A stretch of 57,100 nucleotides of DNA, taken from NCBI GenBank assembly GCA_944358265.1, contig CALVQR010000003.1, positions 1 through 57,100 of the forward strand, written 5' to 3'. Below are positions 8,285 to 42,904 of the stretch, piece after piece; within the stretch, counting starts at the first letter, position 1, and each line of letters begins with the position of its first letter. This DNA comes from an uncultured Bacilli bacterium (GTDB lineage Bacteria; Bacillota_I; Bacilli_A; RF39; UBA660). A program made the position numbers and the translations under genes. The notes under the pieces are model-generated. The model was not told where the DNA came from. It saw only the letters and a program-made list of their open reading frames with translations, and searched no databases.

Positions 8285-8296
8285 ATTACTCTCTTT

Positions 8297-18592: not shown

Positions 18593-19939
18593 CTAATTTG
18601 GTATTTTTAAACTTTGACCTATTGACAAAAGATTACTACTTAAATTATTTATTTTTTTTATTTCATCTACTGTTGTATTATATTTAACCGCTATTTGATA
18701 CAAACTATCTCCACTTTTTACCGTGTATAACGTATAATCAATATTTGATACATTTGGTATTTTTAAACTTTGACCTATTGACAAAAGATTACTACTTAAA
18801 TTATTTAATTTTTTTATTTCATCTACTGTCGTATTATATTTAATCGCTATTTGATACAAACTATCTCCACTTTTTACCGTGTATAACATATAATCAATAT
18901 TTGATACATTTGGTATTTTTAAACTTTGACCTATTGATAAAAGATTACTACTCAAATTATTTAATTTTTTTATTTCATCTACTGTTGTATTATATTTAAT
19001 CGCTATTTGATACAAATTATCTCCACTTTTTACTGTGTATAATATATAATCCTCATTTGTTTCTATTGTTTCATCTGAAATTATAAGTTTTTGACCTATT
19101 GATAAAAGATTACTACTTAAATTATTTAATTTTTTTAAATTATCAACAGTAGTATTAAATTTACTTGCAATTGAATATAATGAATCTCCATTCTGAACAA
19201 TATATGTCTGCGCAGTTTCGTTAATACTAGAAATAGGTATTATAAGTTCCTGTCCTATTGAAAGATTTGTTGTTTTTAAATTATTGGTAGTTTTAATCTC
19301 ATCTACCGTCGTATTAAATTTTTTAGCAATTGAATATAACGAATCTCCTTTTTTTACAATATATATATTTTTACCAGTTCCATCATATGAAATTCCTTGA
19401 TAATTCGCAAGTGCTTTAACTACAGCTTCTGCATACTTTTCATAGTTGTTTTTAAGATTATTTACTTCTTCACTATTGTCTACATTTCCATATTTTACTA
19501 TTATAGTTTCAATATTGCCTGTATCTTTTTGCAAATCATAATAATCTTTTGAAGTATCAGCCTCACTTCTTCGTTGATAATACTTATTTATAGTTAATCC
19601 AGCATCTTCTAAATTATCTGAAATAGATTTAGCAAGTGTATCGTCATTTCTAAGTGCATATATTACTTCAACCCCATTTTCACCTTTTCCTAATTGATTT
19701 GAAATAGCAACTACTTTTGAATTATTCCCATATGCATTCAAAATTCTATTTGCTCTATCTTGATCACTTATATATTCATCAGTTGTTCTAATTATTTTTA
19801 CGTCTGCCCCTAAATTTTTTAATCTATCATAAATATACTCACTTATTAATAAATTATAATCTTTTTCAGTTATATCACTTCCTACTACGCCTGTATTACT
19901 TCCACCCTTTGATGGATCAATTACTATCATAGATCTCAC
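18593..19939 (-). CDS. Amidase_3-like domain (catalytically degenerate) plus five LysM domains
   Basis: IVIDPSKGG / EKD / SNQLG / IIVKYG amidase_3 skeleton; five YxVxxGDxLYxIA repeats. Confidence 0.85.
   Translation of the reverse strand: MRSMIVIDPSKGGSNTGVVGSDITEKDYNLLISEYIYDRLKNLGADVKIIRTTDEYISDQDRANRILNAYGNNSKVVAISNQLGKGENGVEVIYALRNDDTLAKSISDNLEDAGLTINKYYQRRSEADTSKDYYDLQKDTGNIETIIVKYGNVDNSEEVNNLKNNYEKYAEAVVKALANYQGISYDGTGKNIYIVKKGDSLYSIAKKFNTTVDEIKTTNNLKTTNLSIGQELIIPISSINETAQTYIVQNGDSLYSIASKFNTTVDNLKKLNNLSSNLLSIGQKLIISDETIETNEDYILYTVKSGDNLYQIAIKYNTTVDEIKKLNNLSSNLLSIGQSLKIPNVSNIDYMLYTVKSGDSLYQIAIKYNTTVDEIKKLNNLSSNLLSIGQSLKIPNVSNIDYTLYTVKSGDSLYQIAVKYNTTVDEIKKINNLSSNLLSIGQSLKIPN
18597..19040. 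repeat. About three near-identical 156-bp tandem units encoding LysM3-5
   Basis: TTGGTATTTTTAAACTTTGACC recurs at 18598, 18754 and 18910 (period 156). Confidence 0.92.
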
Positions 19940-24647: not shown

Positions 24648-24724
24648 TGGTGACCTGTATGGGATTTGAACCCATGAATGCTGCCGTGAGAGGGCAGTGT
24701 GTTAAACCACTTCACCAACAGGCC
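24648..24724 (-). tRNA. tRNA-Glu (CTC)
   Basis: GGCCTGT..CTGCC-CTCTCAC-GGCAG..GGTTCAAATCC..ACCA cloverleaf. Confidence 0.95.
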
Positions 24725-24731
24725 AAAAATA

Positions 24732-24806
24732 TGGCTGCCCAGGTTAGATTCGAACTAACGCATAATAGATTCAGAGTCTACCGCCTTACCACTTGGCTAC
24801 TGGGCA
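24732..24806 (-). tRNA. tRNA-Gln (CTG)
   Basis: TGCCCAG..GTAGA-CTCTGAA-TCTAT..GTTCGAAT..GCCA cloverleaf. Confidence 0.95.
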
Positions 24807-24989
24807 ATGCATAAATGCATATATATTATAGCAAAAAAGACTAGATAATTCTAGACCTTTTTATTATTAACTAAACATTTTTAATATTTTTATAATTATC
24901 TACTTTACTTTTTATAATTGCAATTCTAGTTAAAATCTTTATTATAATTTTTATCCTATAATTTTACGATGTTATATACAATACATATT

Positions 24990-25130
24990 AATACTAGTTT
25001 GATTAAACCTTTTTAATAAGTATTTTCAAAATTCTTAATCATTTAATTCTCGAAAAATAGTTTTTCTCCATTCTTTTGAATAATTTCCGGAATGTTATCA
25101 CAAACCAATTTGTTATATATTTTGCATCAT
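24990..25130 (-). pseudogene. Decayed MazG-like nucleoside triphosphate pyrophosphohydrolase (COG4997-like)
   Basis: AAGGTG SD and ATG, frameshift, then IYNKLVCDNIPEIIQKNGEK, second frameshift, RELND*EF*KYLLKR. Resembles the YNKLVRDxIPEII family N-terminus. Confidence 0.6.
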
Positions 25131-25133
25131 ATA

Positions 25134-25190
25134 CACCTTAAATTTATAAAAAAGTCCAAAATTATAATTGGACTTTATTCACATATGGCA
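25134..25190 (-). repeat. Imperfect copy of the tRNA-Trp terminal TGCCA plus downstream hairpin (copy 2; copy 1 at 25560-25630)
   Basis: TGCCATATGTGAATAAAGTCCAATTA..TTGGACTTTTTTATAAAT versus TGCCAGATGTGGATAATCTCCAATTA..TTGGAGTTTTTATAAAT. Confidence 0.7.
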
Positions 25191-25251
25191 CGGAACTCGA
25201 ATGAGTTTCCAAATTTTATGAAAAACTTTCTTTTAAGTAGAGAAAGTTTAT

Positions 25252-25548
25252 CTATGCCTTTTTACTTTTTTCTTCATAAGTTTCTAATGTTTTTAAAAGA
25301 AGCATTCTATATATTTCCAATTTTTCTTTTTTACCAATTAAAGAATTATGGTATTCATCTAATGCAAGTAAATCTTCAATATCTAAATTAAATACATTAC
25401 TTAACTTATTTAATATATCATTAGATGGATTTTTCTTTCCTTTTTCTATTTCATTAATGTATGAACTTGATACTTGTGATTTTTCAGATAAGTTTTTAGT
25501 AGTCATATCATTTGCTATTCTAGTAACTCTTACTACTTCTCCTATCAT
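25252..25548 (-). CDS. XRE-family HTH regulator
   Basis: MTTKNLSEKSQVSSSYINEIEKGKKNPS HTH_3 pattern. Confidence 0.85.
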   Translation of the reverse strand: MIGEVVRVTRIANDMTTKNLSEKSQVSSSYINEIEKGKKNPSNDILNKLSNVFNLDIEDLLALDEYHNSLIGKKEKLEIYRMLLLKTLETYEEKSKKA

Positions 25549-25625
25549 AATTTAATTCCCACTTTATATTTATAAAAACTCCAATTTTTATGACATCATT
25601 TACTTAATTGGAGATTATCCACATC

Positions 25626-25699
25626 TGGCAGGGGATGAGAGAATCGAACTCCCAACAAAAGTTTTGGAGACTCCTATTATACCATTTAACTAATCCCCT
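25626..25699 (-). tRNA. tRNA-Trp (CCA)
   Basis: AGGGGAT..GGAGT-CTCCAAA-ACTTT..GTTCGATT..TGCCA. Confidence 0.95.
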
Positions 25700-25799: not shown

Positions 25800-26228
25800 A
25801 TGGGAATTGTTGCGTATAATACAAAAGAACTTGATTTACTTGCTAGACTTATGAGAGCAGAAGCAACTGGTGAAGGTAATCTAGGTATGCTTATGGTTGG
25901 TAATGTAGGCATAAATAGAGTTATAGGAAATTGCTTAGATTTTAAAAATATAACTAGCATCTATCAAATGGTATATCAAGATCCAGGAGGTTTTTCTAGT
26001 ATAAATAGTCCATTATTTTATAGTTCTGCAAATACTACTGAAAAAAATTTAGCAAAAAGGGTTATTAATGGAGAATATTTCCACCCTGCCACTCACGCTC
26101 TTTGGTTTTATGCTCCAGGAACAGGAAATAGTTGTAGAGAGACATGGTTTAATCAAAGAAACAGTGGAAGATATAAAAACCATTGTTTTTATGTCCCAAA
26201 TCAAGGAGTATGTAAGGAATTATATTAA
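25800..26228 (+). CDS. cwlJ: Spore cortex-lytic cell wall hydrolase, CwlJ/SleB family
   Basis: LLARLMRAEA.GEG..GMLMVGNV..NR..C.DF, ALWFY, YKNHCFY; CATATAAT sigE-like -10 at 25777-25784. Confidence 0.85.
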   Translation: MGIVAYNTKELDLLARLMRAEATGEGNLGMLMVGNVGINRVIGNCLDFKNITSIYQMVYQDPGGFSSINSPLFYSSANTTEKNLAKRVINGEYFHPATHALWFYAPGTGNSCRETWFNQRNSGRYKNHCFYVPNQGVCKELY

Positions 26229-26239
26229 AAAATACCAAT

Positions 26240-27226
26240 TTAAACATTGGTATTTTTCTTTATTTGTAATTCCTGACCTATCGATAGTACATCACTTGTC
26301 AAATTATTTAACTGTTTTATGTCATTTATTGTTGTATTATATTTTCTTGCAAGAGCCCATAAACTATCTCCTCTTTGAACAGTATAAACTATTATATTAT
26401 TATTTGATACAGTTCCTGTTGGAATTATTAATGATGTTCCTATAGTTAATATATCATTTGTTAAATTGTTAGCATTTTTTATGTCTTCTACAGATACTCC
26501 AAATTTTCTAGAAATTGACCATAATGTGTCACCAAGCACAACTGTATAAATGTTTTCTTCATTTATTATGTCATTTTCTGATGGTGTTACTATTGTAGTT
26601 GAAGATGGTATTTCAATTATTTGTCCTATTGTTAAAGAATCATTTATTAAATTGTTATATTTTTTTATATCATTTACTGTAGTACCATATTGATTTGCAA
26701 TTGACCATAATGTATCACCTTTTTTTACTATATAAGATATATTAGTATCTTCCGCTTTATAATATTCTGGAACATTAAGAATTTGTCCTACATATAAAAT
26801 ATTATTTGTTAAATTATTTAACCTTTTTATATCATTTACAGATGTATTAAATTTTTTAGCAATGTTCCATAGTGTATCTCCCTTTTGAACAGTATATGTT
26901 GTTGATACTGCTGATTCTCCGTACGGAATATTTTTATACTCAGCAACTGCTTTAACTACAGCTTCTGCATATTTTTCATAGTTATTTTTTATTCTATTTG
27001 CATCTTTTTGATTATCAACAAAACCATATTCAACAATTATTGGCTCTGTTATACCTGTATTTCTGTGAATAAAATAATAATCCTTTGTATTATCACTTGG
27101 TAACCTTCTTTGATATGCTTTTCTTATAGGTTGCCCTTCTTCACTCAAATTATCAAGTATTAATTTTGATAAAGTATCATTATTTCTAAGTGCATAGATT
27201 ACTTCTGCACCTTCCCCACCTCCTGA
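26240..27226 (-). pseudogene. 3' part of an amidase_3 + 4xLysM gene split by the integrated element (5' ~80-90 codons absent from the window)
   Basis: Frame stays open upstream of the called TTG: (H-S)GGGEGAEVIYALRNNDTLSKLILDNLSEEG..IIVEYGFVDN. Colinear with paralog 18593-19939; homology stops at ~27225, 22 bp from the recombinase stop codon. Confidence 0.88.
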
Positions 27227-27250
27227 GTGTTCTTACCTCTGGCAATTTAA
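27200..27250. other. Putative hybrid att site (element/host junction)
   Basis: Minus strand ATTGCCAGAGGTAAGAACACT|CAGGAGGTGGGGAAGGTGCAG: switch from non-coding element sequence to amidase codons. Exact crossover inferred. Confidence 0.65.
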
Positions 27251-28923
27251 TCTTTTTTTTGCTTAGGTCTTCCTTTTTTTCCATAAGGATTGCGGATAGG
27301 ATGTCTATCTTCATAAGTAAAAGTTGTCGATGGTATTACATCAAATTTATATCTAATTTTAATATTTCTATCTTTATCTATTATAATTTTATCTATTAAT
27401 TTTTCATATAATTCTTTTTTAGATTTGTTTAAATCTAATAGTTCTTTTATTTTTTTTGTATAATCAGGAACAATAGATGAACTGTTTTTTATCCTATATA
27501 CTTCCATTTTTTGTTTTTCAATTTTTTCATTAACTGCTTTTAATTTTTCTTCATATTCTTTTGATAATTCTTTATACATTTCTGTTGTAATAATATCTTC
27601 ACATCTATCATCATATAATGTTGATAATCTTTTTGTTAATTTATTTTTTTCAATCTCATATTGTTTTATTTTTTTATATATTTCATCAGTGCTTTCACCA
27701 AGCTTTTTAGATAATTCTGCATTTAATTTTTTAATATTTAGTTTTTTTATATGTATGGAAATATCATTATCTATCTTTTCTAATAATTGTTCTTCTAAAT
27801 AATCATATGGATAAAAATGTGGCGAACATCTTTCTCGCTTAGGATCTCTGGAGTATCTATTACAATTAATTTCCCAATAATCTCTATTTCTTCTATAATA
27901 AACTGAAAGCCTATTACCACATTCTTTGCAATATAATTTTCCTTCAAGTAACCTCTTTGGTCTATCAACTTTTATATTATAGTGCCTATCATTATTTTTT
28001 CTTATTGATTGACAATATTCAAAAGTTTCTTTATTCACTATAGCTTCGTGTGTGTTTTCAACTATATCCCAAAGTCTTTCATCTAATGTTATTTTCTTTT
28101 TAGATTTATAATTAACTTTTGTTTGAGTATGTTGCACCATATCACCAGTATATATTCTATTTTGTAATATTTTTTTTACTGTAGAAATATTCCATTTTGT
28201 TCCATCAATTAATCTTGATGAATATGCAGTTTTCTTATAAGCACTTGGAGTCAATATTCCCTCATTATTTAACCTAGTTGCTATCTCTGATGGCCCAACT
28301 CCATTTACTCTCCAATAAAATATCTTTTTAACTATTGGTGCTGTTTCAGGATTTAAAATAAGATGTCCTTTATCTTCCGGATCTCTCATATAACCATAGC
28401 TAGGTAAACTCCCAATAAATTTTCCCTTTTTTCTTTTTTCATTTAATACATTCCTAATTTTCACAGAGTTTTGTTTACTATAGTAATCATTACATGCAAT
28501 TATAAAAGTTGATGAGTCATTGCTCGCCTGATTTTTAAAACTATCATATGATTCCAATATTGATATAAATCTTATATTATTTTCAGGAAAATATGTTTCA
28601 ATATAATAGCCAGTCATTACATGATCTCTGCCTAATCTTGATAAATCTTTTACTATTACACAATTAATAAGTTTATTTTTTATATCAGCTATTAATCGTT
28701 GAAATCCAGGCCTATCAAAATCAGTTCCAGAAAAACCATCATCAACATATTCCTTTACTAAATTATAATTATGTGTTTTAACATAATCTCTTAATAATTC
28801 CTTTTGATTAGCAACACTTTCACTATCAGATTCATATTTTTTATCTTTGTCTCTATCTTCTTGAGATAATCTTATATAGATTCCAACATTGAAATCTAAG
28901 TCGTTCAAGTAATTATTATACAT
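27247..28923 (-). CDS. Large serine recombinase (resolvase + recombinase + Zn ribbon + coiled coil)
   Basis: YIRLS catalytic Ser, DDGFSG..RPGF, VKDLSRLGRD, YGY, CKECG..C; GGAGG SD before ATG 28923. Confidence 0.95.
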   Translation of the reverse strand: MYNNYLNDLDFNVGIYIRLSQEDRDKDKKYESDSESVANQKELLRDYVKTHNYNLVKEYVDDGFSGTDFDRPGFQRLIADIKNKLINCVIVKDLSRLGRDHVMTGYYIETYFPENNIRFISILESYDSFKNQASNDSSTFIIACNDYYSKQNSVKIRNVLNEKRKKGKFIGSLPSYGYMRDPEDKGHLILNPETAPIVKKIFYWRVNGVGPSEIATRLNNEGILTPSAYKKTAYSSRLIDGTKWNISTVKKILQNRIYTGDMVQHTQTKVNYKSKKKITLDERLWDIVENTHEAIVNKETFEYCQSIRKNNDRHYNIKVDRPKRLLEGKLYCKECGNRLSVYYRRNRDYWEINCNRYSRDPKRERCSPHFYPYDYLEEQLLEKIDNDISIHIKKLNIKKLNAELSKKLGESTDEIYKKIKQYEIEKNKLTKRLSTLYDDRCEDIITTEMYKELSKEYEEKLKAVNEKIEKQKMEVYRIKNSSSIVPDYTKKIKELLDLNKSKKELYEKLIDKIIIDKDRNIKIRYKFDVIPSTTFTYEDRHPIRNPYGKKGRPKQKKD

Positions 28924-28976
28924 TTTAACCTCCAATCTTAATTACTTGATTGAAGTTAAGACAACTATATAATAAC

Positions 28977-29005
28977 ACTATATAAATATTAAAACAAAAC
29001 TGCAA
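28977..29005 (-). promoter_or_regulatory. sigA-type promoter of the recombinase
   Basis: TTGCAG-N17-TATAGT on the minus strand. Confidence 0.6.
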
Positions 29006-29006
29006 T

Positions 29007-29102
29007 TTAACCAAATTTTGCATTTTGCTTATCCTTTAAAATTTCTTCTATAAGATATCTCAATATTAAATCTTCCAAAGTTATTTTATTATTTTCTATC
29101 AT
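29007..29102 (-). CDS. 31-aa ORF, candidate recombination directionality factor
   Basis: AGGTG SD; MIENNKITLEDLILRYLIEEILKDKQNAKFG; directly upstream of the LSR. Confidence 0.5.
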   Translation of the reverse strand: MIENNKITLEDLILRYLIEEILKDKQNAKFG

Positions 29103-29118
29103 ACCAACACCTATTAAA

Positions 29119-29144
29119 ATAATATGTTATGAAAACCACATTAT
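29119..29144 (-). promoter_or_regulatory. sigE/sigK-like promoter upstream of the 31-aa ORF
   Basis: ATA-N15-CATATTAT, same spacing as the spoIVA promoter here; overlapping CATAACATA sigK-like -10. Confidence 0.45.
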
Positions 29145-29198
29145 TTATGAACCTTTCTAATTTACTAATCGTGAATTATTTAATTCTATTTTTTAATT

Positions 29199-29273
29199 TT
29201 ATTTTTGCTTATTCAATACTCCTAATAATTTTCTTTTAAATTCTTCTCTTGATACTTTCTTTTTCTTTTGCAC
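29199..29273 (-). CDS. 24-aa basic micro-ORF
   Basis: AGAAAGGA SD plus GTG; MQKKKKVSREEFKRKLLGVLNKQK. Confidence 0.35.
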   Translation of the reverse strand: MQKKKKVSREEFKRKLLGVLNKQK

Positions 29274-29410
29274 TTTATCTTTCCTTTCTACACAAAAAAA
29301 GCAATTGTTTTCCAATCGCTTAATATATTTATATAATGATTATAATATTAAAGTAGTTAAGTACTTTTAAAGATTAATTTAACCATATATTCCTCCAATT
29401 CATTATATTA

Positions 29411-29872
29411 CTACAAAATTTTATTTACTAATTTATCTAATCCTAAATATAATGCAAACTTTATGACTGCACTTTTTCTTATTTTATTTAATTCATTATT
29501 ACACATTTTATATTCTTCTTTTAAAACTGAATCTTTTTCCTTTGATATAAAAGTCTTATAAAATATTTCTTTTTCAAATATATTCAATTTATTAAATCCA
29601 TATGTAAATTTTTTAATACAAGCCCTTGCTTTTAATTCGGTATTATAATCCTTGATAAGAAACGATTCTATTTTTGAACTAGTCAATTTTCCTTGAAATC
29701 CTGTATAGTCCATTTCATATTTTGGAGTTATACGAATACTATTTTCATAATCGCCAATTGTCATCAGCAATGTTTCAATTAGATTAATAAAAATTTCTAC
29801 TATTTTCCTATATTTTGTATAATCAAATTGATCAGCAATATACTTGTTTAAAAACTCATTTTCACTATTCAT
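29411..29872 (-). CDS. ArpU/RinA-like transcriptional regulator
   Basis: Start reassigned to ATG 29872 after GGAGG; C-terminal EKEIFYKTFI..KIRKSAVIKFA..LG pattern. Confidence 0.6.
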   Translation of the reverse strand: MNSENEFLNKYIADQFDYTKYRKIVEIFINLIETLLMTIGDYENSIRITPKYEMDYTGFQGKLTSSKIESFLIKDYNTELKARACIKKFTYGFNKLNIFEKEIFYKTFISKEKDSVLKEEYKMCNNELNKIRKSAVIKFALYLGLDKLVNKIL

Positions 29873-30383
29873 AAAATATTCCTCCGAATCCACAAAAAAA
29901 GAGTAAAAGACATTTATGTCAATTACTCTTTTCACAAAAAAATGATTTTTGAGGTGAGAAAGGCATTGATTGATGTAAAACATTTAAATCATGATCTCTT
30001 TTGGTTCCCTCCATATTATCACTTCCATACGTAATTTAAATAATATTGCTGTTTATGATAACATTTTTTATTTTATTATTCAATTACATATTTATGTAAT
30101 AAAAAAAGAAACTATATCAATGTTTCTTCATCTCGATAGCTTTCGCTATTATAACAATTATAACATGTATAAATATTTTTTCAAGACCTAAAATTATCTT
30201 TAATAATTCCTTTTTCAATCTTTTCAAAATCTTATTTTTTTCTTTATTTTTTTTAACATGTTGCCTTTATTTACTAGGGTTTTTGCAAAAAACGCTTTTT
30301 TATTTTTTTTATAAATTTATATGTTTTTTATAAATAAAATTAAAAATTAGTGTTACTTTATAATCTTAAATTTTTTTAAAAAA

Positions 30384-30635
30384 CTAAACTTTTTGAAGCA
30401 TTTTGGTGTCTTCGTATACTAATAAATCATCAATTTCGCATTCAAGGACATAGCAAAACTTTGCTAAAATATTTGAATCATACCAAAAACATTCGTTATT
30501 ATAATACTTCTTTACCGTTTCATATCTTATATTTGCATATTTACTCATAGTATTTATAGATATATTTTTTTTATCCATTAAATACTTTAAATTTAGCTTA
30601 ATACTGCCATATTCATTTTTCTTTATAATTTGCAA
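30384..30635 (-). CDS. Cro/C1-type HTH regulator
   Basis: LKYLMDKKNISINTMSKYANIRYETV..LAKFCYVLECEIDDLL; AAGGAGG SD. Confidence 0.85.
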   Translation of the reverse strand: MQIIKKNEYGSIKLNLKYLMDKKNISINTMSKYANIRYETVKKYYNNECFWYDSNILAKFCYVLECEIDDLLVYEDTKMLQKV

Positions 30636-30797
30636 TGCTAGTATCCTCCTTTTATTCTTTTTTTGATACTAGCAAAAAAATGATAGTATCAATCAAATAG
30701 ACTAATACTACCATCTATTCATATTATAAAATTCATACTTATCAAAACGTAGCACTGACTACTTTCTAAGTATATCACAAATTTGAGAATTAATAAA

Positions 30798-31220
30798 TTA
30801 CCTAAGCATATTTAATATTATTTCAGACAAATCATTTACATTATTATTTCTAATAATAACTCTTAATTCATCAAAATATTTTTTAGCTTCTATTCTATTA
30901 TCAAATGATTTTCTTAAAATATTAGAATAAACAATATTATTATCAGATATAGTTATAAATACATCAAAACTATTATTAGCATAAATATTTTTAATATTAA
31001 AGTTATAGCCATTTTTCTCTTCATTATATTCGTTTTCTATCTGATAAATTATTTCATCATCTTGAACAAATAGATTTAGAAGTTTATTTATTTCACCATT
31101 AAATTCAGTATATGATGAGTATTTTTCTTTATTTCTATTTACATTATCCAAAATTTTTTCTTCTTTTTCTATATTTGACTTTTTCAAAAAATTAAATAAT
31201 TCATCAATTTTATACATCAT
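30798..31220 (-). CDS. Hypothetical protein
   Basis: 140-aa ORF with GGGAG SD. Confidence 0.65.
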   Translation of the reverse strand: MMYKIDELFNFLKKSNIEKEEKILDNVNRNKEKYSSYTEFNGEINKLLNLFVQDDEIIYQIENEYNEEKNGYNFNIKNIYANNSFDVFITISDNNIVYSNILRKSFDNRIEAKKYFDELRVIIRNNNVNDLSEIILNMLR

Positions 31221-31305
31221 ACTGCTCCCTAACTATAAAGTAATAATACATAAATATTATATATATACAATAAGTATAAATCAATACTATATTTTAAGGT
31301 AATTT

Positions 31306-31596
31306 TTAACATAAACAAATAAATTTACCAGTGTTTTTTAGTTTATTTTTATGATTTTTATTATAAAATAATAAAGCTTGTTCTATTAATTGTTCAAACA
31401 CTTTATCACTTAGGTACATATTCATGCAACAGTCTCTAATCAAGGATTCAATTCTATATCCTTCTTTATTATCAAATAAATCAAAATGCATTTCAATTTC
31501 AAATATACTTCTTTCGAGAAATTGCTTTTTGGATAATTCTAACGATAAATTTAAATATTTTTTCATTTCTTTAGTATTTTCATTCATATATATCAT
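31306..31596 (-). CDS. Hypothetical protein
   Basis: Overlaps the upstream ORF, suggesting translational coupling. Confidence 0.6.
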   Translation of the reverse strand: MIYMNENTKEMKKYLNLSLELSKKQFLERSIFEIEMHFDLFDNKEGYRIESLIRDCCMNMYLSDKVFEQLIEQALLFYNKNHKNKLKNTGKFICLC

Positions 31597-31912
31597 CTTT
31601 CAATAAAAAATTAATTTTTTCAAATAATAAATTAAAAATTTTTATTTTTTTTAATTTTTGAAATAAATAATATAGAATTCCAAATTCAAGTACACTTAGT
31701 AAGATTGCAACCTCTAAAGCGAGTCCAGGACTAATCATACTCAAACAAAAATTATAAGGAACACCAATAAAATCACAATACGCTTTCCCAATATTATAGT
31801 TCATATATAAAGTAAAAATAACAAATGAAATAATGAATGCGTACATTAAAACTTTTACCATATTTTCCATAACATCACTAAAGTCTAAATACATATTATC
31901 CTCTCCTAACAT
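31580..31912 (-). CDS. Hypothetical two-TM membrane protein
   Basis: AGGAGAGG SD, two hydrophobic segments; divergent from the double-XRE gene. Confidence 0.6.
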   Translation of the reverse strand: MLGEDNMYLDFSDVMENMVKVLMYAFIISFVIFTLYMNYNIGKAYCDFIGVPYNFCLSMISPGLALEVAILLSVLEFGILYYLFQKLKKIKIFNLLFEKINFLLKDDIYE

Positions 31913-31996
31913 TTATTATAACATATTTTAGGTAATTTCCCGACACTTTTTAAATAATTTATTTTTAAATGAGAAAATTATTTAAGAGGTGGTTTA

Positions 31997-32443
31997 ATGA
32001 TTTTCGAGAAAATGAAAGAAATAAGAGAATACTTTGATAAAACACAATTAGAATTAGCAACTTTTCTTAAAGTCAGCAGATCAACTTACGCTGGATGGGA
32101 AAATGGGATAGATTTAATTCCTCTAATAAAACTGAATGAATTTTGTAATTATTTTGACATAAGTCTTGATTATATTTGTGGTTTAAGTAAAACGAAAAAT
32201 TATAAATTATTAAATTTAGAAATTAACAAAAACCTTTTAGCTAAAAATATAAAGTTTATTAGAATTAAAAATAACGATACTCAAGAAAATATTGCTAAAA
32301 TTATAGGTGTTGATCAATCAAATTATTCAAAATATGAATTAGGAAAAATTTTAATAAAAACATATCCTTTAGTCGAATTTGCACGCCACTATAAAATTTC
32401 TATAGACTGGTTATGTGGTAAAATAAAAGACTCAAATATATAA
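31997..32443 (+). CDS. Tandem double-XRE HTH repressor
   Basis: Two HTH_3 units (TQLELATFLKVSRSTYAGWENG; TQENIAKIIGVDQSNYSKYELG), each ending SLDY/SIDW.CG. Confidence 0.88.
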   Translation: MIFEKMKEIREYFDKTQLELATFLKVSRSTYAGWENGIDLIPLIKLNEFCNYFDISLDYICGLSKTKNYKLLNLEINKNLLAKNIKFIRIKNNDTQENIAKIIGVDQSNYSKYELGKILIKTYPLVEFARHYKISIDWLCGKIKDSNI

Positions 32444-32466: not shown

Positions 32467-33015
32467 TTAATTATTATTTATACATAAATCTAAAATATCT
32501 TGATCAGATATTTTTTTATTATATCTATCATTATATTCACTAATAAAATTATAGATATTATTTATATAGTCATCAACGGTAGAAGCATCTTTTAAAAGTT
32601 TTTCTGCCAAAACATCTATTCCACCTAAGAGATATTGCTCAAAGATTTTGTAACATTCATTTTTTTCTTCTGTTCCAGTACTATATCTAAAAGCATTATC
32701 TAATCTTTGATCAATAGAAAGATTTTCTTTGTTATGAAGTAACATTATTAATTCGTAATTAAAATTTAAAGTCTTTGACTCTCTGTTCATTTGATCAAAG
32801 TTTATTTTTTTTATGTTATCAGTTGCAGGACCTTCTTCATCTTTTTTTGACATTCTGCCATATAAAAATCCAACAATAGGTGCAATTATAAAAACATCAA
32901 CATTACGTTCAAATATTTTGAACTTAGTATCTGTATCAATTTCTGATGTTAATTGAGTAACTATAACTGCATGTCTTCCTTTAAAATTATAATCTCTCTC
33001 AAACATTTTACTCAC
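32467..33015 (-). CDS. Last gene of the defence operon, PbeD/DndE-like by position
   Basis: Overlaps the SMC ATPase stop; assignment from synteny only. Confidence 0.5.
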   Translation of the reverse strand: MSKMFERDYNFKGRHAVIVTQLTSEIDTDTKFKIFERNVDVFIIAPIVGFLYGRMSKKDEEGPATDNIKKINFDQMNRESKTLNFNYELIMLLHNKENLSIDQRLDNAFRYSTGTEEKNECYKIFEQYLLGGIDVLAEKLLKDASTVDDYINNIYNFISEYNDRYNKKISDQDILDLCINNN

Positions 33016-35029
33016 CTACCCTTGTAATTTTACTGTCAACTGGATATTCTTTGTCTCGTAAAGAAACTTCGTACTCTATCCCTATTTTTCCTTGCATTTG
33101 ATTTTTTGCAATATTTCCATCTGAGTCTTTTATGAAAATAATAACTTGTCTTGCAATATTCGGAATTACCTCACAAATATTCTTTATTCTTCTTTGATCA
33201 AACGAAGATAAAGGAGCATCCATTACTAATGGATATTCATCTGTAACAATACTAGATTCATCTGATTTATCGTTAACTTTTTCTTTAGCTAAATTAATTA
33301 CACCAACAATAAATGCAAATATTATTGAATAGCTTTTTGCTGTGTTTGCATCTATATTAGAACTATTCTCTTGTAATTCATTAACATATGAAGTAATTCT
33401 ATACTTTTCATCAATATTTATTGTCATACCACCGGCGTAAATTTGCTTAAACAATTCATTAATTTGATCTTCTAATTTTTCTCTTGTTTTAGCTTCTTGA
33501 AAATCATAAGTTTGCTTAAATTTATTATAGGCAGCCTGTGCATACATAATTTGTTTTTCTATAGATTGATTTTTTTCAATTTTCATTTGTAGTCTGCTTA
33601 TTTCTGCTGCAGCATCCTGTTTTTCTTTTTCTAAAACGCCATTTTGGATTTCCAATCTTTTTAATTGATCATTTAATTCTCGTACAGTATTTTCCATATC
33701 ATTTTGTCGACTTTTCAAGTCTTTTACTTTTGTATTAGAAGATTTTAAAATAGATTTATCTATTTCACCAATTTGATGCTCCAACTCATCTATTTTGTTA
33801 CTACTGACTCTTATAGCACCAAGCAATGATTCCATATTACTTAAATAATTTTCACTTGTTTTAATTAACATTCCAGAACGATCTTGAAATTGATTAATAG
33901 CACCACCTAGAGATTGAGGAGGAATATATTTTAATAAATTCATTAATTCTTGAACCGCTGATGAAGTAGGATCAGTTAAATCACATCCACATAAACATTT
34001 TTTTCTGTTTAACAAATATTTAATGGTTTCATCTCTAACTGCCGGAATCCCTTTATCAACATTATCTGTATTTTTTAATTCTATTAAAGCATCATTGATT
34101 AATTTACGTGATAGAAAAGCGTATGTTTGACGACTAAAATTTGCCATAACTGTTGCAATAGTTTTATTTTTGTGTTCAATTTCTGTTTGTAAATTACTAT
34201 TAAGTATATTTAATTCATGTTGTAATTGTTCAGCTTCTGCATAAGACAATATTTCAGCTTTAGTTTTTTCTATTTCTTTACTATAATAATTTAATTCATT
34301 TTCTATTTTATCTATCTTTTCGCAATTAGATTCAATTTTTTCTGTATTATTATAAACTATCTCTCTTAGTTTTTTTGTCTCACTATCTCCAGCTGAATCA
34401 AGTTGAGAATAATATTTACCTATTACACTGTTTTTAGAGCCTGGGTTTAAATGATCTATTGCTTTAGTTAATGCTGTTAAACCTAAAATGTTTTGTACTG
34501 CCGTTTTAAATTCATCACTTTTTCCACTACTAACTTCTCCAGCCATTTTTTCTATTCTTTCACCATCAAAGAAAAAATATTTTGATAATGACTCAGGTAA
34601 TATATTCGCTATTGTAGATAAATTTTTTAAAGGATTAACAATAATTGTTTGACCATCATTTTGTTTTTGATAAATTTCCAAAGTAGTATTTTCCTGCTTT
34701 AGAAATCCATTAATATCTTTTTTATAAACCTGTTTTCTTATAATGGAATAATTTATACTATTATGTTCAAGATCTAACTTAACACTTACTGTTGATTCCG
34801 TTCCTTCTAACATTTCTTTTTCAACAATGCTATTAAGCATTGATTTATTTTTAAACCCATCAGTTTTTGAATACAATACCCATTGAAACGCTTGTGCCAG
34901 CGTTGTTTTGCCTGCCCCATTTTCAGCCATAACTAAAGTTATATTTTTTTCCTTATCAGTTGAGAATTCTATTGTATGTTCACCCTTGAAAGGTCTGAAA
35001 TTACATAGCGTTAATTTCTTTAACAACAT
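33008..35029 (-). CDS. Rad50/SbcC/DndD-like coiled-coil ABC ATPase (PbeC-like)
   Basis: NFRPF, AENGAGKT, YFFFDGERI, central CLCGC hook, LVMDAPLSSFD. Confidence 0.85.
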   Translation of the reverse strand: MLLKKLTLCNFRPFKGEHTIEFSTDKEKNITLVMAENGAGKTTLAQAFQWVLYSKTDGFKNKSMLNSIVEKEMLEGTESTVSVKLDLEHNSINYSIIRKQVYKKDINGFLKQENTTLEIYQKQNDGQTIIVNPLKNLSTIANILPESLSKYFFFDGERIEKMAGEVSSGKSDEFKTAVQNILGLTALTKAIDHLNPGSKNSVIGKYYSQLDSAGDSETKKLREIVYNNTEKIESNCEKIDKIENELNYYSKEIEKTKAEILSYAEAEQLQHELNILNSNLQTEIEHKNKTIATVMANFSRQTYAFLSRKLINDALIELKNTDNVDKGIPAVRDETIKYLLNRKKCLCGCDLTDPTSSAVQELMNLLKYIPPQSLGGAINQFQDRSGMLIKTSENYLSNMESLLGAIRVSSNKIDELEHQIGEIDKSILKSSNTKVKDLKSRQNDMENTVRELNDQLKRLEIQNGVLEKEKQDAAAEISRLQMKIEKNQSIEKQIMYAQAAYNKFKQTYDFQEAKTREKLEDQINELFKQIYAGGMTINIDEKYRITSYVNELQENSSNIDANTAKSYSIIFAFIVGVINLAKEKVNDKSDESSIVTDEYPLVMDAPLSSFDQRRIKNICEVIPNIARQVIIFIKDSDGNIAKNQMQGKIGIEYEVSLRDKEYPVDSKITRVGE

Positions 35030-35217
35030 TTTATTTCCTCCTCAATAATTTTTTCTATTTTCTTTTTCATTTCATCATCATTTAAATCTCTTGTTTTTAC
35101 GTTATCATTTTCTAAAGTAATAATTGTTTTGACAATTCTATTTAGTTTCTCGCGATCCAAGTTGCTTTGATCAACAAACTGAAATTCTTTTTCATTAATT
35201 TTTTCATCATTAATCAT
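35020..35217 (-). CDS. Small coupled protein, PbeB-like by position
   Basis: 65 aa, overlaps both neighbours, GGAGG SD. Confidence 0.6.
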   Translation of the reverse strand: MINDEKINEKEFQFVDQSNLDREKLNRIVKTIITLENDNVKTRDLNDDEMKKKIEKIIEEEIKCC

Positions 35218-37402
35218 ATATTTCCTCCATTTCTATATCATCTTCATAATTATCATCTTCATTTAATTTATAAGTATCGATGATATCATAAATTAATTTA
35301 TCTGCCTCCATTTTACTCATTGCAAGTCGATTAAATTCTTTCATTCTATTAACTTCATTTCTGACCATCGATTTTTCACATTTTATTTCTTCATAAGTTA
35401 AATTTGCTGCTTCATCTAATGGCCTAGGTAAAGTAATAAAATCATATATAATTGCAAACTCTTTTCCAGGATATTTTCTCAGAACTCTTCCTCTTCTTTG
35501 AATATATTCTTTAGGATTAGTTGTACTAGCCAATATAAATGCAATTTTTATTGCTGGAATATTAACACCTTCATCTAAACATTTAATTGCAACTAATACT
35601 TGTAAAAAATCACCATCAAAAAATTTTCTTCTCAATAAATCTCGTGTATAACTATCTTCTCTAGAAGTAAATTGTGCAACATTCATTCCCATATTTTTTC
35701 CAAGTAATTCCGTGATTGCATCGATTTGTCTCATATCTTCTCCATTTTCATCTTGTTCTGAAATCTTTGTAGCACCACAATATACCAAAATATGATTATC
35801 ATTTTTATAAGGTTTTATTTCTTTAGCGAGTGCATTTACTTTATTAAATGCTCCAGCAATTAATCTTGATCTTTTCTGAGCTAATATTTTCCCTCTATCA
35901 GATAATTTTGTTTTACCATTTTTTTTGATGACACACTTTCCAATTTCTTTTGACAAAGCATGATATTGTTCTAATTCATCATCAGTTAAATACACTATTA
36001 CCGGATAATATTGATATGGAGTTAAAAATCTTTCTCCATTTTTACCCTTAATTGCATCCTCCAATGTAAACTCAATACATTTATCGCCAAAATAATTTAA
36101 TAATGCATTAGTACCTTCTTCATCTCCATGTCTTTCTAAAGTAGCTGATAAAGCAAGACGAAAATTGAATTTATCGCTTAATGTTCGTTTTAAATTTGCT
36201 GCTCCAAAATTATGTGCTTCATCAACAACTAAAAGAACATCACCTCTAATATTATTTATTTGCGTTTGAATGTAATCTGTTGCAAAAGTACTATTTGTAC
36301 ATACGAAGCAAAAGAAATTTCTTACACCTAAATTATAATCCATAATAGCCATTTTAAATCTATTCTTAAAATCTTTTTGTACAGATGAACTATGCCCTAT
36401 GATTGGATTAATATTAAAATTAACAATATCCTCTACCCATTGATTTACTAAATGCTGATATGGGCAAACAATTATAACAGCCAACCTTCCTTTTAAATCT
36501 TTATATAGTTGTGTAATTGCTCCTAATCCCGTAAATGTTTTACCTGTACCCGTAGCCATATCAAAAATACCTTTATATTTTTTTTCTTTCCACGTTTTTA
36601 TTGCTTGCTGTTGATATTCGTGTAATGAAATACCTGCAGGTATTTCTGGCGAATTTGTTACTTTTTTTAATTTTTCAATTGTACCATCAATACGTTTTAT
36701 GTTAAACTCTTTTTTGTCGATTTCCCAATCAACAAAATCCTTTTTAAATGACAATAATTTTTGTTTTACTACCTCTGGAAATTCATATATAACAGCACTT
36801 TCATCAGTATTATTCCATAAATTATCAAAAGCTTTTTGTTTAATTGTAACACGCTCTTTATCATTCCATGAGGTAAAAACATCAACAATTTCGTAATTGT
36901 TAACAAAAGCATTTTCTGATTCATTCATAGATCCAGAGAATGCAACTATATTATTTTCTGAATCATACATTAAACCAAGCTTTTCATGATATAAACCTAA
37001 TTTATCATTTTTCAAAGAAAACGCAATTTTTATATCAAGACGTTCTTGCGCAATTAAAGTTGCTAGTAAATTTAATCTTTCTTCTTCAAAATAATTTTGA
37101 GGTTCTGTTATATATTGTAGTAGCACTCTTTCTATAATATTATCTCTTAATTCATATCCTTTATTTATGGCCTCAATATCCTCTTCAGACAAATTTGGTG
37201 ATGCAATTAATTGAATTTTTCCATTATTATTTATCAAATTAGTTATTCCATAAGAAATTTCTAATAATGATGAGGAAGAGAAAAATCCAACACTCCTCTT
37301 ATATAAAACAGACTCTTTTAATAATGGAATATAAAAATCACTTACAATATTATCTCTAGGGCTTCTATATTCTTTTTTTAAACTAACATCTAATAAACTC
37401 AT
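35210..37402 (-). CDS. PLD-nuclease + SF2 DEAH helicase (PbeA-like phosphorothioation-associated restriction protein)
   Basis: HEK....D......SGSMN PLD motif; MATGTGKT, VDEAHN, LSAT, DEGVNIP, QRRGRVLR. Confidence 0.88.
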   Translation of the reverse strand: MSLLDVSLKKEYRSPRDNIVSDFYIPLLKESVLYKRSVGFFSSSSLLEISYGITNLINNNGKIQLIASPNLSEEDIEAINKGYELRDNIIERVLLQYITEPQNYFEEERLNLLATLIAQERLDIKIAFSLKNDKLGLYHEKLGLMYDSENNIVAFSGSMNESENAFVNNYEIVDVFTSWNDKERVTIKQKAFDNLWNNTDESAVIYEFPEVVKQKLLSFKKDFVDWEIDKKEFNIKRIDGTIEKLKKVTNSPEIPAGISLHEYQQQAIKTWKEKKYKGIFDMATGTGKTFTGLGAITQLYKDLKGRLAVIIVCPYQHLVNQWVEDIVNFNINPIIGHSSSVQKDFKNRFKMAIMDYNLGVRNFFCFVCTNSTFATDYIQTQINNIRGDVLLVVDEAHNFGAANLKRTLSDKFNFRLALSATLERHGDEEGTNALLNYFGDKCIEFTLEDAIKGKNGERFLTPYQYYPVIVYLTDDELEQYHALSKEIGKCVIKKNGKTKLSDRGKILAQKRSRLIAGAFNKVNALAKEIKPYKNDNHILVYCGATKISEQDENGEDMRQIDAITELLGKNMGMNVAQFTSREDSYTRDLLRRKFFDGDFLQVLVAIKCLDEGVNIPAIKIAFILASTTNPKEYIQRRGRVLRKYPGKEFAIIYDFITLPRPLDEAANLTYEEIKCEKSMVRNEVNRMKEFNRLAMSKMEADKLIYDIIDTYKLNEDDNYEDDIEMEEIYD

Positions 37403-37413
37403 ATTGCACCATC

Positions 37414-38541
37414 CTACAAACTATTTAAAGCTTCAATTAGTAAATCAATTTCTTTTTTAGTAGTGAAGAAACTAATACTAATTCTAACAGTTCCATTATA
37501 CACCAAAGAATCTATAAAGTCATGTACCAGCGGTGCACAATGATATCCTGTTCTAACACAAATATCAAATTCATCATCTAAAATCATCCCTACTTCATCA
37601 GAAGAATATCCTTCTATAGCTATAGAAACAATTCCAAAAATATTTTTTTCTCCTGGTGGTAAGAATAATTTAACCTTTTTCACTTTTTTTAAATTATCAA
37701 TTAAATATTGCGTCAACTCAATCTCATGTTCATAAATATTCTGTGACTTTAGCCATCTTATACTTGCAGCTAAACCTCTGATTCCAACAATGTTTGGACT
37801 ACCAGCTTCATATTTATCTGGAATATTATCTGGCATATTTGGATTCATCGTATCAGATCCGGTTCCTCCAAATATATTAGTATTTAATAAATCATCTTTT
37901 AATTTTATAAATCCAGCTATTCCAAACGAAGCATATAATGATTTGTGACCAGCAAAAACAACATAATTTATGGCTATATGATTTTTTATTGGAATAATTC
38001 CAAAGCCTTGTGATGCATCTAATACATTTATTGCATCAAATTTTTTTGCCATTTCAAAAATTTTTTCATATGGTATAATGTATCCAGTAACATTACTAAC
38101 TTGTGATAAAAATATCGCGGCAGGTTTATGCATAACAAATTGATCATTTATCTTCGAAAAATCAGGCATCCAACTATCTTTATCAAACGATAAAATTTCA
38201 ACATTTATTTTTTTTGTTTTTTTTAATTGTTCAAGCGGTCTAATAATTGAGTTGTGTTCAAAAGGACTTACGTAAATATAATCCCCTTCAACTATATCAA
38301 TACCGAATATAATATCATTTAAGGCCTCAGTTGCTGAAGATGTATAAATAACATTACCATTATTCATTCTATTTAAATCCAATATTTCTTGCCTAACTTT
38401 TTCCTTAATTGCAGAGGCTTCTCGTGCACATTTATAACTTCCTCGTCCTGTGTTAAAAGCATTTCTATTTGCTTGTTCCAACTCGGCATATACTTCATCA
38501 GGTTTCGGAAAAGTAGTTGCTGCATTATCTAAATATATCAT
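37414..38541 (-). CDS. PLP-dependent cysteine desulfurase (SspA/DndA role)
   Basis: YLDNAATT, EHNS, DASQ, GHK, RTGYHCA catalytic Cys. Confidence 0.92.
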   Translation of the reverse strand: MIYLDNAATTFPKPDEVYAELEQANRNAFNTGRGSYKCAREASAIKEKVRQEILDLNRMNNGNVIYTSSATEALNDIIFGIDIVEGDYIYVSPFEHNSIIRPLEQLKKTKKINVEILSFDKDSWMPDFSKINDQFVMHKPAAIFLSQVSNVTGYIIPYEKIFEMAKKFDAINVLDASQGFGIIPIKNHIAINYVVFAGHKSLYASFGIAGFIKLKDDLLNTNIFGGTGSDTMNPNMPDNIPDKYEAGSPNIVGIRGLAASIRWLKSQNIYEHEIELTQYLIDNLKKVKKVKLFLPPGEKNIFGIVSIAIEGYSSDEVGMILDDEFDICVRTGYHCAPLVHDFIDSLVYNGTVRISISFFTTKKEIDLLIEALNSL

Positions 38542-38549
38542 ATCTCACC

Positions 38550-41500: not shown

Positions 41501-42044
41501 CTTTTAGACATTTCTTAATGTCAAATATAGCATCTTCATATTCACTTTCCCATTTTAATATCACTTTTAAGGCTATATCAAAATATGTGTTTATTACAAT
41601 ATCAGACAATTTTTCTCTTTCCAAGGCTTCAGATAAAGCAAGTAAAAACGCTTGATTTAAATCACCATAATTACTATTAATTATTATTGGTAACAACTTT
41701 ATATGCTTATTTCTTATAGTAGATAATGTATGATATGTATTTAAATCTACATTTTTTATTTTTTCAATAAATCTATTAATTTGTTTTTCACTTTCATCGT
41801 TATAATCACTTAAAAGCGTCATCAAGACAAGTAGTAAATGAGACTTTCCCTTACCATAAGGCCCTATTAAAGTTGTTGCTCTGTTTTTTGAAGTCAATAC
41901 ATTATTAAAATATACATTTAACAGTTCACATCCGTCTTTTGTAGGAATATATTGCTCGATTTTAGATATATCATTTAAATCAAATTGTAAATTAACAGAA
42001 TATTGAAAGTTTTCGTTAACGCCAATTAATTCCTTGTATTTCAT
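38550..42044 (-). CDS. Large P-loop ATPase, SspC/BrxC-like
   Basis: GPYGKGKS, IVFDEFSKFLE, GRF, CFPLNP, QNERTLFTFL; follows the DUF4007 gene. Confidence 0.8.
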   Translation of the reverse strand: MKYKELIGVNENFQYSVNLQFDLNDISKIEQYIPTKDGCELLNVYFNNVLTSKNRATTLIGPYGKGKSHLLLVLMTLLSDYNDESEKQINRFIEKIKNVDLNTYHTLSTIRNKHIKLLPIIINSNYGDLNQAFLLALSEALEREKLSDIVINTYFDIALKVILKWESEYEDAIFDIKKCLKEYNCSLKELKNGLKNYSEKYYTIFKNVYSCILHGQEFNPLVNSDIIKIYKDMTHEIKEYGYDGIFIVFDEFSKFLEYVENSHMMKDLKLLQDFAELANRTGENEQIHLSCITHKTMNQYAKNMSDDKANAFKTVEGRFKELYFNRSIEQNYEIVSYALRKKKGYVDFYNNFYNANIDFYNNIKKLPIFKNNDSIEKILFKGCFPLNPLTVYCIIQLSEKIAQNERTLFTFLTDDDQNSLKYFIDNNDSGLFNVNNIYDYFKPLFKKESDSAIKDIWVKSENAIAKCTDDIEKNVIKTIAVIYMINETELLVPDDLTIQLAMSIESNKFEKITNSLIDKSIIKRKKITNEFEFTTIYNRKLSKEVKRISETQFNNINIKDTVKEIMNINYTLPRRYNEEFKITRFFSNIYMSEEELLSINNLDILFENNYCDGIIINLIRNSRNIQNIIDHFKNVNNDRIVLKMPKTLFPKTISSLLSEYKSIDYLLHNESNKDDFAKALELMKKEIINVLEELLSQYFSKDNIQEYIYRDKIDKNVINVSSYISNICFDIYNETPVVNNEMINKAELSAPIKRARDIVIETILNNDEGLIKSKTSAEATIYKAIVEKKHTQSISNILNIINEFIKKSDNNKISFSKLYNTLENKPYSIRKGIIPILLSMSLYNYSDIIIIYFMNKEIDLDAGNLIKINENPDKYFILTEKGTTDKIKYLSKLLYIFNIPNLDNQRVNLRKLVESMRRWILSLPRILREYRIEQDEMNISEKYISIKNELLRPDINNNEFIYSKLLEILETDDYEVVCSEIEKMKQTFDNFVSKYSVILIDKTKAIFDKNFKGSLHSLLKEWYKDNNLGSSPVIFDLKTKEIIDYINIMSTHDEFDIIEKISKIITGYYIEDWQPNEINNYENGLLNVIEKVKYIEKNDTNDANKIILISGNEKIEKYFNSSNDISAIGTTMKSNIEELIDEYGDSLTEEEKITVLLDIVKKYM

Positions 42045-42054
42045 TTATTACACC

Positions 42055-42900: not shown

Positions 42901-42904
42901 ATTT

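Follow-up and report, generated by a model that had tools for sequence, protein, structure and literature searches.

Large serine recombinases (LSRs) are carried by a kind of mobile element that interrupts sporulation genes. Within the sections available to us, the literature describes such elements in sigK (skin), spsM (SPbeta), spoVFB (vfbin), spoVR (vrin), gerE (gin) and kamA (phi3T) (PMC4191935, PMC5595907, PMC5025042, PMC6957869), and the reference list of PMC12286644 adds an element in yabG. Gene-splitting elements that are removed at sporulation are known so far from few genes of cultured Bacillus and Clostridium. Here, we describe an LSR element that splits a cell-wall amidase gene in an uncultured Bacilli bacterium of the family UBA660. 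The window analysed, meaning the whole stretch of 57,100 nucleotides, is the entire contig C3 (CALVQR010000003.1) of the assembly that we call G000 (GCA_944358265.1; 1.0 Mb in 60 contigs, 64% complete, around 25% G+C). In this window, a gene encoding an Amidase_3 domain followed by LysM repeats is broken off next to an LSR gene, and the insert has the gene content of an integrative conjugative element (ICE). We show how the two halves of the gene fit together, how often the same site is occupied in the family, and how far the locus resembles the elements that leave their target gene during sporulation.

The amidase frame lies on the minus strand and, by open reading frame (ORF) translation, is open between a stop at 27233-27235 and position 26240. 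The translation of this 3′ part begins EHSGGGEGAEVIYALRN..., continues into four LysM repeats and covers only positions 85-173 of the 174 positions of the Amidase_3 model (Pfam). When the whole assembly was searched with this model, three matches were obtained: the 3′ part in the window, a full-length paralogue, and a 5′ part on another contig, C1. The 5′ part belongs to an ORF at C1:15151-15441 (minus strand) that reads MNNNVKIVIDAGHGG...VISNHLNAGG and then runs through 7 element-derived codons into a stop. The original prediction, made from the window sequence, had placed a split amidase gene directly beside an LSR gene, and the ORFs and Pfam matches bear this out: the LSR stop codon lies 21 nt from a 9-bp core, CAGGAGGTG, that is shared by both halves. 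It had also expected the missing 5′ half at the distal end of the element, joining in frame. That half exists, with 89 codons and the shared core, although not simply beyond position 57100 as had been supposed; the window already spans all of C3, and the far end is on C1. As read from the two ends, the crossover is located within the 9-bp core, and the break falls in the second zinc-ligand motif of the Amidase_3-LysM gene.

Joining the host-side arms in silico keeps the frame and gives the product ..VLVISNHLNAGGGEGAEVIYAL.. The search for uninterrupted orthologues that the prediction had called for was successful, since intact genes of eight other genera continue across the site with matching residues, the stretch ISNHxNAGGGxGAEVIYALRN spanning the same point, and one of them covers Amidase_3 positions 1-172 (Pfam). 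The rebuilt attB site sits in codons 86-92 (NAGGGEG). Only after the rejoin is the Amidase_3 domain full, with H13, E27 and H84 coming from the 5′ part and the Glu of IVEYGF from the 3′ part; we take the His/Glu/His residues to be the zinc ligands and the Glu to be the catalytic residue. The inferred attP shows self-complementarity at 42 of 66 positions, compared with 24 of 68 in the rebuilt attB. This imperfect inverted repeat of the arms matches the expected look of an LSR attP, and palindromic arms are also visible at the junctions of relatives. Recombination between the two cores would excise the element exactly, restoring a frame laid out as in the intact orthologues.

As had been anticipated, the split copy is the sole catalytically intact Amidase_3 in the 64% complete assembly, where no other intact match was found. 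The paralogue, which lies 7 kb from the split gene, has degenerate catalytic residues. Two other genomes have similar degenerate copies, no more than 3 kb away from their split genes (L104 4601-5134, L113 5578-6111). The degenerate paralogue may be a non-catalytic partner with a wall-binding or regulatory role.

How common is this insertion? For a survey of the family, whose genomes are small (roughly 1 Mb), one genome per genus was taken from 100 genera and searched with each gene half, and the junctions were then read. The amidase gene is present in 86 of the 100 genera, and junctions could be read directly at the same nucleotide in 37, of which 34 show attL and three attR only (G062, G023, G013). 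The 5′ part breaks off right after ..AAT GCx GGx GGT in the 34 genera, and in all junctions read the attR end has ..GGT on one side and GG on the other side of the join, so that the crossover position is constant. One genome, G083, is ambiguous, as both of its contigs stop at the junction. Another, G100, was discarded as a split case after its contig was found to read through the site and then end. The intact gene was read in the eight genera mentioned above and amounts to around 39 in all by a hand count of open frames. In relatives, contigs often stop about 100 nt or less from the junction (G083:C49 and C14, G051:C23, G002:C1, G100:C111, G019:C13, G080:C14, G075:C18, G050:C4); this would be expected if the sampled populations are mixed for the presence or the type of the element.

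The elements found at this site are diverse. Their element-side arms fall into several unrelated classes, and the class of the window recurs in G018, where homologues of the 104-aa ORF and ParA come after the junction. In 12 genomes both halves are on a single contig, 9-20 kb apart, and each of the 12 inserts includes an LSR that is 48-72% identical to that of the window. The cargo of relatives' elements is varied and comprises PLD-helicases and other defence-like genes; at 10 of 13 loci the LSR is preceded by an HTH_36 protein. Elements that we call class A have TnpV (PF14198) and a 99-aa protein at the 5′ junction and the LSR at the other end; TnpV and/or a protein of about 99-116 aa occurs at 10 of 32 junctions. 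A general rule by which the first gene behind the junction would encode a small directionality factor was rejected, because it fails outside class A, where the elements begin with diverse cargo. Taken together, the site accommodates ICEs, TnpV-bearing elements of the Tn4451 kind and small defence islands, among others.

The same site emerges when the search starts from the recombinase. A scan of species-representative genomes by LSR alignment returned 565 relatives, and the best 80 of these 565 were examined for amidase halves. At 69 of the 80 loci an amidase half starts or ends at the junction residue. At 63 it is the 3′ part, downstream on the same strand and starting at the first post-junction residue, while at the other six (L142-L147) the LSR is beside a 5′ part that ends at residue 89 on the opposite strand, which indicates an inverted element. 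Eleven loci have no amidase half, and 8 of these 11 have less than 700 nt of downstream sequence. Judged from these junctions, the amidase site is a dedicated landing pad (attB) for many LSR elements with several types of attP arms, and the insertion in the window appears as one instance of a very common insertion rather than a singular event.

A second gene is split in the family. The spoIVA gene is interrupted at residues ~117-126 in 11 of the 100 genera (G082, G005, G087, G083, G048, G009, G027, G010, G070, G011 and G056). In G082 the insert of about 2.6 kb (G082:C2:72632-76745; L158 1133-5249) encodes a Fic/DOC protein of 243 aa and a 514-aa LSR, which is 39% identical to the LSR of the window and has its stop codon 12 nt before the spoIVA 3′ part. 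In B. subtilis, spoIVA is required for spore formation. As no spores should form if spoIVA stayed broken for good, excision by this group of LSRs very probably takes place in the mother cell. A listing-only literature search surfaced no description of spoIVA as an element target. In G064, spoIVA is broken elsewhere, at residues ~401-407, and about 6 kb separate the parts (C15:1076-1351 and 7331-8548). An apparent split of sigK in G082 was rejected, as its halves at the end of C3 and the start of C4 abut and thus reflect a contig break and not an element.

Is the amidase itself a sporulation gene? The lineage is, by its gene content, spore-forming: Spo0A scores above cut-off in all four good relatives, SigK-like genes are present in relatives, and SpoIVA was found in 88 of 101 genomes, including the window (2997-4469). 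In B. subtilis, the sigma-K consensus is AC-N16/17-CATAnnnTA, and yabG, spoVIF and cotD are sigma-K genes. Among 29 usable upstream regions of amidase orthologues, a CATAnnnTA box stands just before the ribosome-binding site in 20, and the full AC-N16/17-CATAnnnTA is found in 14. As background, the box occurs at that distance before 21 of 685 ORFs of G000 (3%) and the full motif before 5 of 642. The upstream regions of different genera cannot be aligned save for CATAnnnTA and, often, a cAC 16-17 nt further upstream. The window's own amidase gene has the box, but GC in place of AC at -35. Ten other motif-bearing genes of G000 were scanned; they include a YabG peptidase, SpoVIF, a YqfQ-like protein, a YlbD-coat protein and a sub-threshold CotD, the remaining five being unrelated or unassigned. 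The genes marked by CATAnnnTA are, on this motif, a candidate mother-cell regulon of the lineage. In this small set, which includes the five named genes, the box lies 10-35 nt before the start (G000:C2:35546-36325, window 4555-4797, C24:13831-14118, C35:2546-2857, C18:6233-6601).

Since the Amidase_3 domain starts at residue 5-7 and leaves no room for a signal peptide, the sigma-K-type promoter motif is conserved, and the neighbouring gene is of the CwlJ/SleB type, we consider it likely that the amidase acts late in the mother cell, as an enzyme of the CwlC kind. It is not CwlD, as an intact orthologue scores 69 bits with the CwlD model (TIGR02883) against an equivalog cut-off of 221.55, and no NCBIfam equivalog model was reached by the amidase. 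A late mother-cell gene would serve only a cell that has no progeny. In B. subtilis, according to the available text of PMC517825, cwlC and cwlH together lyse the mother cell late in development. Just past the CwlJ-like gene, the window has genes for tRNA-Glu(ctc), tRNA-Gln(ctg) and tRNA-Trp(cca) at 24648-25699 (minus strand), which account for the depth peaks of the public runs in that interval.

The recombinase has Resolvase, Recombinase and Zn_ribbon_recom domains, all three above Pfam cut-offs. Its closest named relative is TndX of Tn5397, with 38% identity over aa 17-395, and among phage records none exceeds about 40% identity. The features of its leader come from a by-eye alignment of 92 LSR upstream regions. 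LSR leaders (window 28936-29050, L069-L148) have a common stretch, GTCTTAAT..ATTAAGTAAG, between the sigma-A-like hexamers and the ribosome-binding site, which could be a short hairpin or an operator. A sigma-70 promoter scan of 26000-29600 remained at chance level (30 sites against 31.4 expected).

The insert is, judged by its genes, an ICE of at least 45 kb. This identity follows from the presence of an LSR, a relaxase, a coupling protein, a VirB4-like protein, PrgI and a TrbL-like protein, and from both junctions having been read. The ICE extends over window 27226-57100 and C1:1-15173, two contig pieces with an unassembled gap; as no exact overlap of the C3 end with the C1 start or with any other contig end was found, its size is given only as a lower bound. 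Its set of Ssp/Pbe phosphorothioate defence genes is supported by PADLOC matches, the PbeD-like match being weak. E-values are 2.4e-53 for SspB, 9.9e-98 for SspC, 3.7e-33 for SspA, 1.2e-244 for PbeA and 1.7e-108 for PbeC, and the fourth Ssp gene has BrxP as its best match (3.9e-87, with SspD at 1.5e-10). The conjugation genes and Ssp/Pbe matches thus agree with the earlier suggestion of an ICE with defence cargo. The element also encodes a Y-family (ImpB/MucB/SamB) polymerase with a YolD-like partner (window 47334-49242), and its own sortase together with a 928-aa SpaA/thioester-domain adhesin (G000:C1:7332-10707, L004). The available portion of PMC10868615 reports srtA/B sortases to be absent from the orders RFN20 and ML615J-28. 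The Metallophos gene at the attL end was considered as a directionality factor of the Bxb1-gp47-like kind and dropped as a firm candidate, because the G018 element lacks it there and other elements have it elsewhere. The coordinates of all features are collected in the table.

Table. Features of the split amidase locus and of the inserted element (positions in the window unless a contig is named; G000:C1 is a second contig of the same assembly).
Feature	Position	Strand	Remarks
3′ part of Amidase_3-LysM gene	26240-27225	-	ORF, Pfam; catalytic Glu (IVEYGF), four LysM; stop codon 26240-26242
5′ part of amidase gene	G000:C1:15174-15441	-	89 codons; Amidase_3 positions 1-78 matched at C1:15181-15423
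Shared 9-bp core CAGGAGGTG (minus strand)	27217-27225	-	attR side; second copy at C1:15174-15182
Element-side arm of attR (P arm), between core and LSR stop codon	27226-27246	-	
LSR	27247-28935	-	562 aa, TTG start; relatives align from ATG at 28923
LSR leader	28936-29050	-	sigma-A-like hexamers (TTGCA.. / TATTAT), short hairpin-like sequence before ribosome-binding site; function inferred
Terminator-like hairpin between ArpU-like gene and LSR	29299-29321	-	2 such sites against 0.4 expected
Regulatory module	29411-32443		ArpU-family (29411-29983, -), HTH_26 (30384-30635, -), small ORFs, double HTH_3 regulator (31997-32443, +)
Pbe-type module	32467-37402	-	PbeD-like (weak match), PbeC (AAA_23/DndD-like, 673 aa), PbeA (PLD-helicase, 730 aa)
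Ssp-type phosphorothioation genes	37414-44656	-	SspA (cysteine desulfurase), SspC (1164 aa), SspB (DUF4007), PAPS-reductase (BrxP/SspD-like)
805-aa protein, YolD-like protein, Y-family polymerase	44787-49242	-	805-aa protein with weak sigma-70 region 4 match
Conjugation module, first part	49323-57100	-	526-aa protein, VirB4-like ATPase (50900-53302), PrgI (53208-53600), small ORFs
Conjugation module, continued		-	ArdC-like anti-restriction/zincin protein (55079-55978), ADP-ribosylglycohydrolase (56015-56959)
Conjugation part on C1	G000:C1:1-15173		TrbL-like, VirD4-type coupling protein (T4SS-DNA_transf), DUF3801, MobA/VirD2 relaxase
Remaining element genes on C1			sortase, SpaA/TED adhesin, HTH_36 protein, ParB, ParA, 104-aa ORF, Metallophos (C1:14377-15084)
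CwlJ/SleB-type cell-wall hydrolase (Hydrolase_2)	25800-26228	+	host neighbour, convergent with amidase; CATATAATA 14 nt before start
Paralogue, Amidase_3 and five LysM	18593-19939	-	degenerate catalytic residues: IDPSKGG, ISNQLGKG, IVKYGN

Does excision of the element follow sporulation? In the mechanism that we propose, the LSR would excise the element in the sporulating mother cell, as is the case for skin in sigK and SPbeta in spsM, and the amidase would be rebuilt there, while the forespore would keep the element. The same LSR would also excise the element for conjugative transfer. Elements of this kind are as a rule found in mother-cell genes, and the target conforms to this. We find the sporulation-timed, skin-like excision plausible, its chances being close to even, if slightly on the doubtful side.

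The main alternative is that this is a plain hot spot for insertion: the conserved motif would serve as a landing pad, the amidase would be inactivated at little cost, and excision would occur at low frequency for transfer, without any link to sporulation. We regard this as a serious possibility, though one that we lean somewhat against. A number of results favour it and at the same time weigh against sporulation-timed excision. The elements move horizontally and have not diverged in step with their hosts. Indeed, the identities of LSRs and of amidase 3′ parts are uncorrelated (Pearson 0.01, Spearman -0.03; 75 loci, 2775 pairs), and in 88 pairs with LSRs at least 95% identical the adjoining amidase parts have a median identity of 59%. 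In the public runs X2 and X3, kilobases of ICE sequence match fully or almost fully next to 200 host-side bases that are clearly diverged; this ICE has thus recently entered different hosts at the same site. The listed samples with this strain came mostly from chicken gut. The contigs of the four public runs examined, out of 24 listed, hold only the integrated form, with no empty-site joint or loose end at 27226 among the matches listed; as contigs drop rare forms, we do not weigh this absence as an argument against excision. The mother-cell motif is absent from 91 of the 92 LSR upstream regions and present in 1, sigma-A-like hexamers being common instead, and a terminator-like hairpin stands ahead of the leader of the window LSR. 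In a scan of 255 ORFs for one simple motif, in 14 stretches (12 complete elements with flanks and the two ends of G000), no conserved element gene was preceded by the motif, nor did a candidate directionality factor under a sporulation promoter turn up; only 4 element genes had the motif, all of them non-conserved. Past the 5′ fragment, immediately within the element, a weak AT-rich hairpin with a T-run would hinder read-through from the host promoter, although its fold is no better than that of shuffled sequences (z = -0.23). The promoter call for the amidase is itself indirect, being a motif match to the B. subtilis consensus, and the loss of one lysis amidase may be cheap, by analogy with cwlC, which works together with cwlH. 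The nearest named LSR is TndX of Tn5397, and TndX and TnpX are not known to need an accessory factor, whether for integration or for excision. In C. difficile, excision of LSR-bearing conjugative transposons (CTn2, CTn5, CTn7, Tn6103/6104) has been detected in ordinary cultures (PMC3158075). Against the hot-spot explanation, occupation of 37 of 100 genera by elements whose flanking gene halves are open and catalytically intact is unexpected for a gene that is permanently off. The His/Glu/His residues are kept in 51 of 53 5′ parts and the Glu in 101 of 103 3′ parts, there is no stop inside the matched stretch of the split halves, and the four residue exceptions are degenerate paralogues at two loci. 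Nevertheless, the elements are young arrivals in many hosts and the intact halves could therefore reflect recent insertion. The element also brings no replacement gene end, unlike many gene-targeting elements, and related LSRs split spoIVA, where permanent inactivation would abolish sporulation; timed excision would thus be within reach of this LSR group. Finally, in the available text of PMC4191935, PMC5595907 and PMC6957869, the tested elements inside mother-cell genes (sigK, spsM, spoVFB, spoVR, gerE and kamA) all excised at sporulation.

Two further explanations would remove the developmental question altogether. The split gene might be a phage-type endolysin, or the remnant of one, so that its interruption has no developmental meaning. 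Amidase_3 plus LysM without a signal peptide is also typical of endolysins, so the architecture fits, and so does the failure to reach an NCBIfam equivalog, including CwlD. We nevertheless hold this to be very unlikely, given that the gene is present in the great majority of the genera surveyed, that a CwlJ/SleB-sized ORF (134-171 aa) lies downstream and convergent at 6 mapped loci, that the sigma-K-type motif is conserved in otherwise unalignable upstream regions, and that no phage genes are seen in the host-side flanks within the window. Only the copy in the window was Pfam-scanned; 3 of the 6 loci are in one sequence cluster with it and the other 3 are unclustered singletons. The locus might also be an artefact of assembly or binning, with halves from different organisms or with chimeric junctions. 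Such an error could be suspected in a metagenome-assembled genome of 60 contigs and 64% completeness, whose contigs keep the halves apart and lack the middle of the element. However, the integrated attR junction is spanned by independent contigs of 4 out of 4 public runs, each from a different study, one of them without differences over 1761 nt. The same junction architecture is found on single contigs in the 12 other genomes, and the halves have a common core, fit in frame and match intact orthologues. An artefact is in our opinion extremely improbable.

Returning to excision in the mother cell, a broader proposal can be made, which we put forward tentatively and with more doubt than confidence. 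Late mother-cell genes, that is, the CwlC-like amidase in ~37% and spoIVA in ~11% of genera, would be shared parking sites for conjugative elements, TnpV-type transposons and defence islands, from which TndX-like LSRs excise in the mother cell. The spore germ line would thus keep its cargo for defence and transfer without sporulation paying for it. In class A elements, TnpV and the 99-aa gene are the first genes behind the sigma-K-type promoter of the split gene, and they may couple excision to this host promoter.

These results add a cell-wall amidase and spoIVA as new targets of gene-splitting elements. They also bring in a new type of passenger, as the carrier is a complete conjugative element equipped for phosphorothioate defence. 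They further concern scale, because roughly a third of the genera in this uncultured gut lineage are occupied at the same nucleotide by elements with several attP types. The recombinases form a large natural set of orthogonal serine integrases with one common attB, which could serve genome engineering. The locus also provides a way to ask whether mother-cell genes are a general hiding place of mobile elements in spore-formers of the gut. Should excision prove unrelated to development, the site would still be a major integration hot spot, and the ICE one that passes from genus to genus in animal guts.

How does the locus compare with described systems? The target gene resembles cwlC of B. subtilis in its N-terminal Amidase_3 domain, the lack of a signal peptide, the C-terminal peptidoglycan-binding repeats and the sigma-K-type promoter, which is here a motif only. 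In contrast to CwlC, whose repeats are of the SPOR type, the repeats here are LysM, no equivalog model is reached and the function is predicted. With respect to the element, the LSR is only 38% identical to TndX, and the relaxase, coupling protein and associated genes are of the MobA/VirD2, VirD4, VirB4 and PrgI kind, unlike the Tn916-like conjugation genes of Tn5397. In other respects the ICE is similar to Tn5397 (TndX), CTn2, CTn5, CTn7 and Tn6103, which in the available text of PMC3158075 are conjugative, have a single LSR at the end and an end repeat of 2-9 bp, and carry accessory cargo. The class A elements of relatives, with TnpV near one end and the LSR at the other, are like Tn4451/Tn4453 and Tn6104-6106 (TnpX and TnpV). 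The window ICE, unlike Tn4451/Tn4453, is without TnpV, and relatives' elements carry defence-like cargo and not catP. The elements described here also differ from the LSR transposons of Clostridia by their strict target, one coding motif across many genera, whereas TnpX is reported to have a 2-bp target site and, in the available text of the same paper, is not described as aimed at one gene (PMC3158075).

The closest comparison is with skin and SPbeta. An amidase as the target of a gene-intervening element was not found in the literature, although the supplementary tables of PMC4191935, PMC5595907 and PMC3158075 could list more targets; the original prediction, which did not recognise this target as described, stands in that no paper naming an amidase target was found. 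Our locus departs from the skin/SPbeta kind in its Amidase_3-LysM target, in its carrier, which is a full ICE with defence cargo and not a prophage or prophage remnant, and in a site that is used by many mobile element types in about a third of the genera. It also differs in that no sporulation-controlled directionality factor was found, developmental excision being a proposal here. Like these elements, it is an LSR element inside an apparently mother-cell-specific gene, with the recombinase gene at the element end and short identical cores at its flanks, and its excision would restore the frame exactly. The locus is a new target and host lineage for an already known kind of element.

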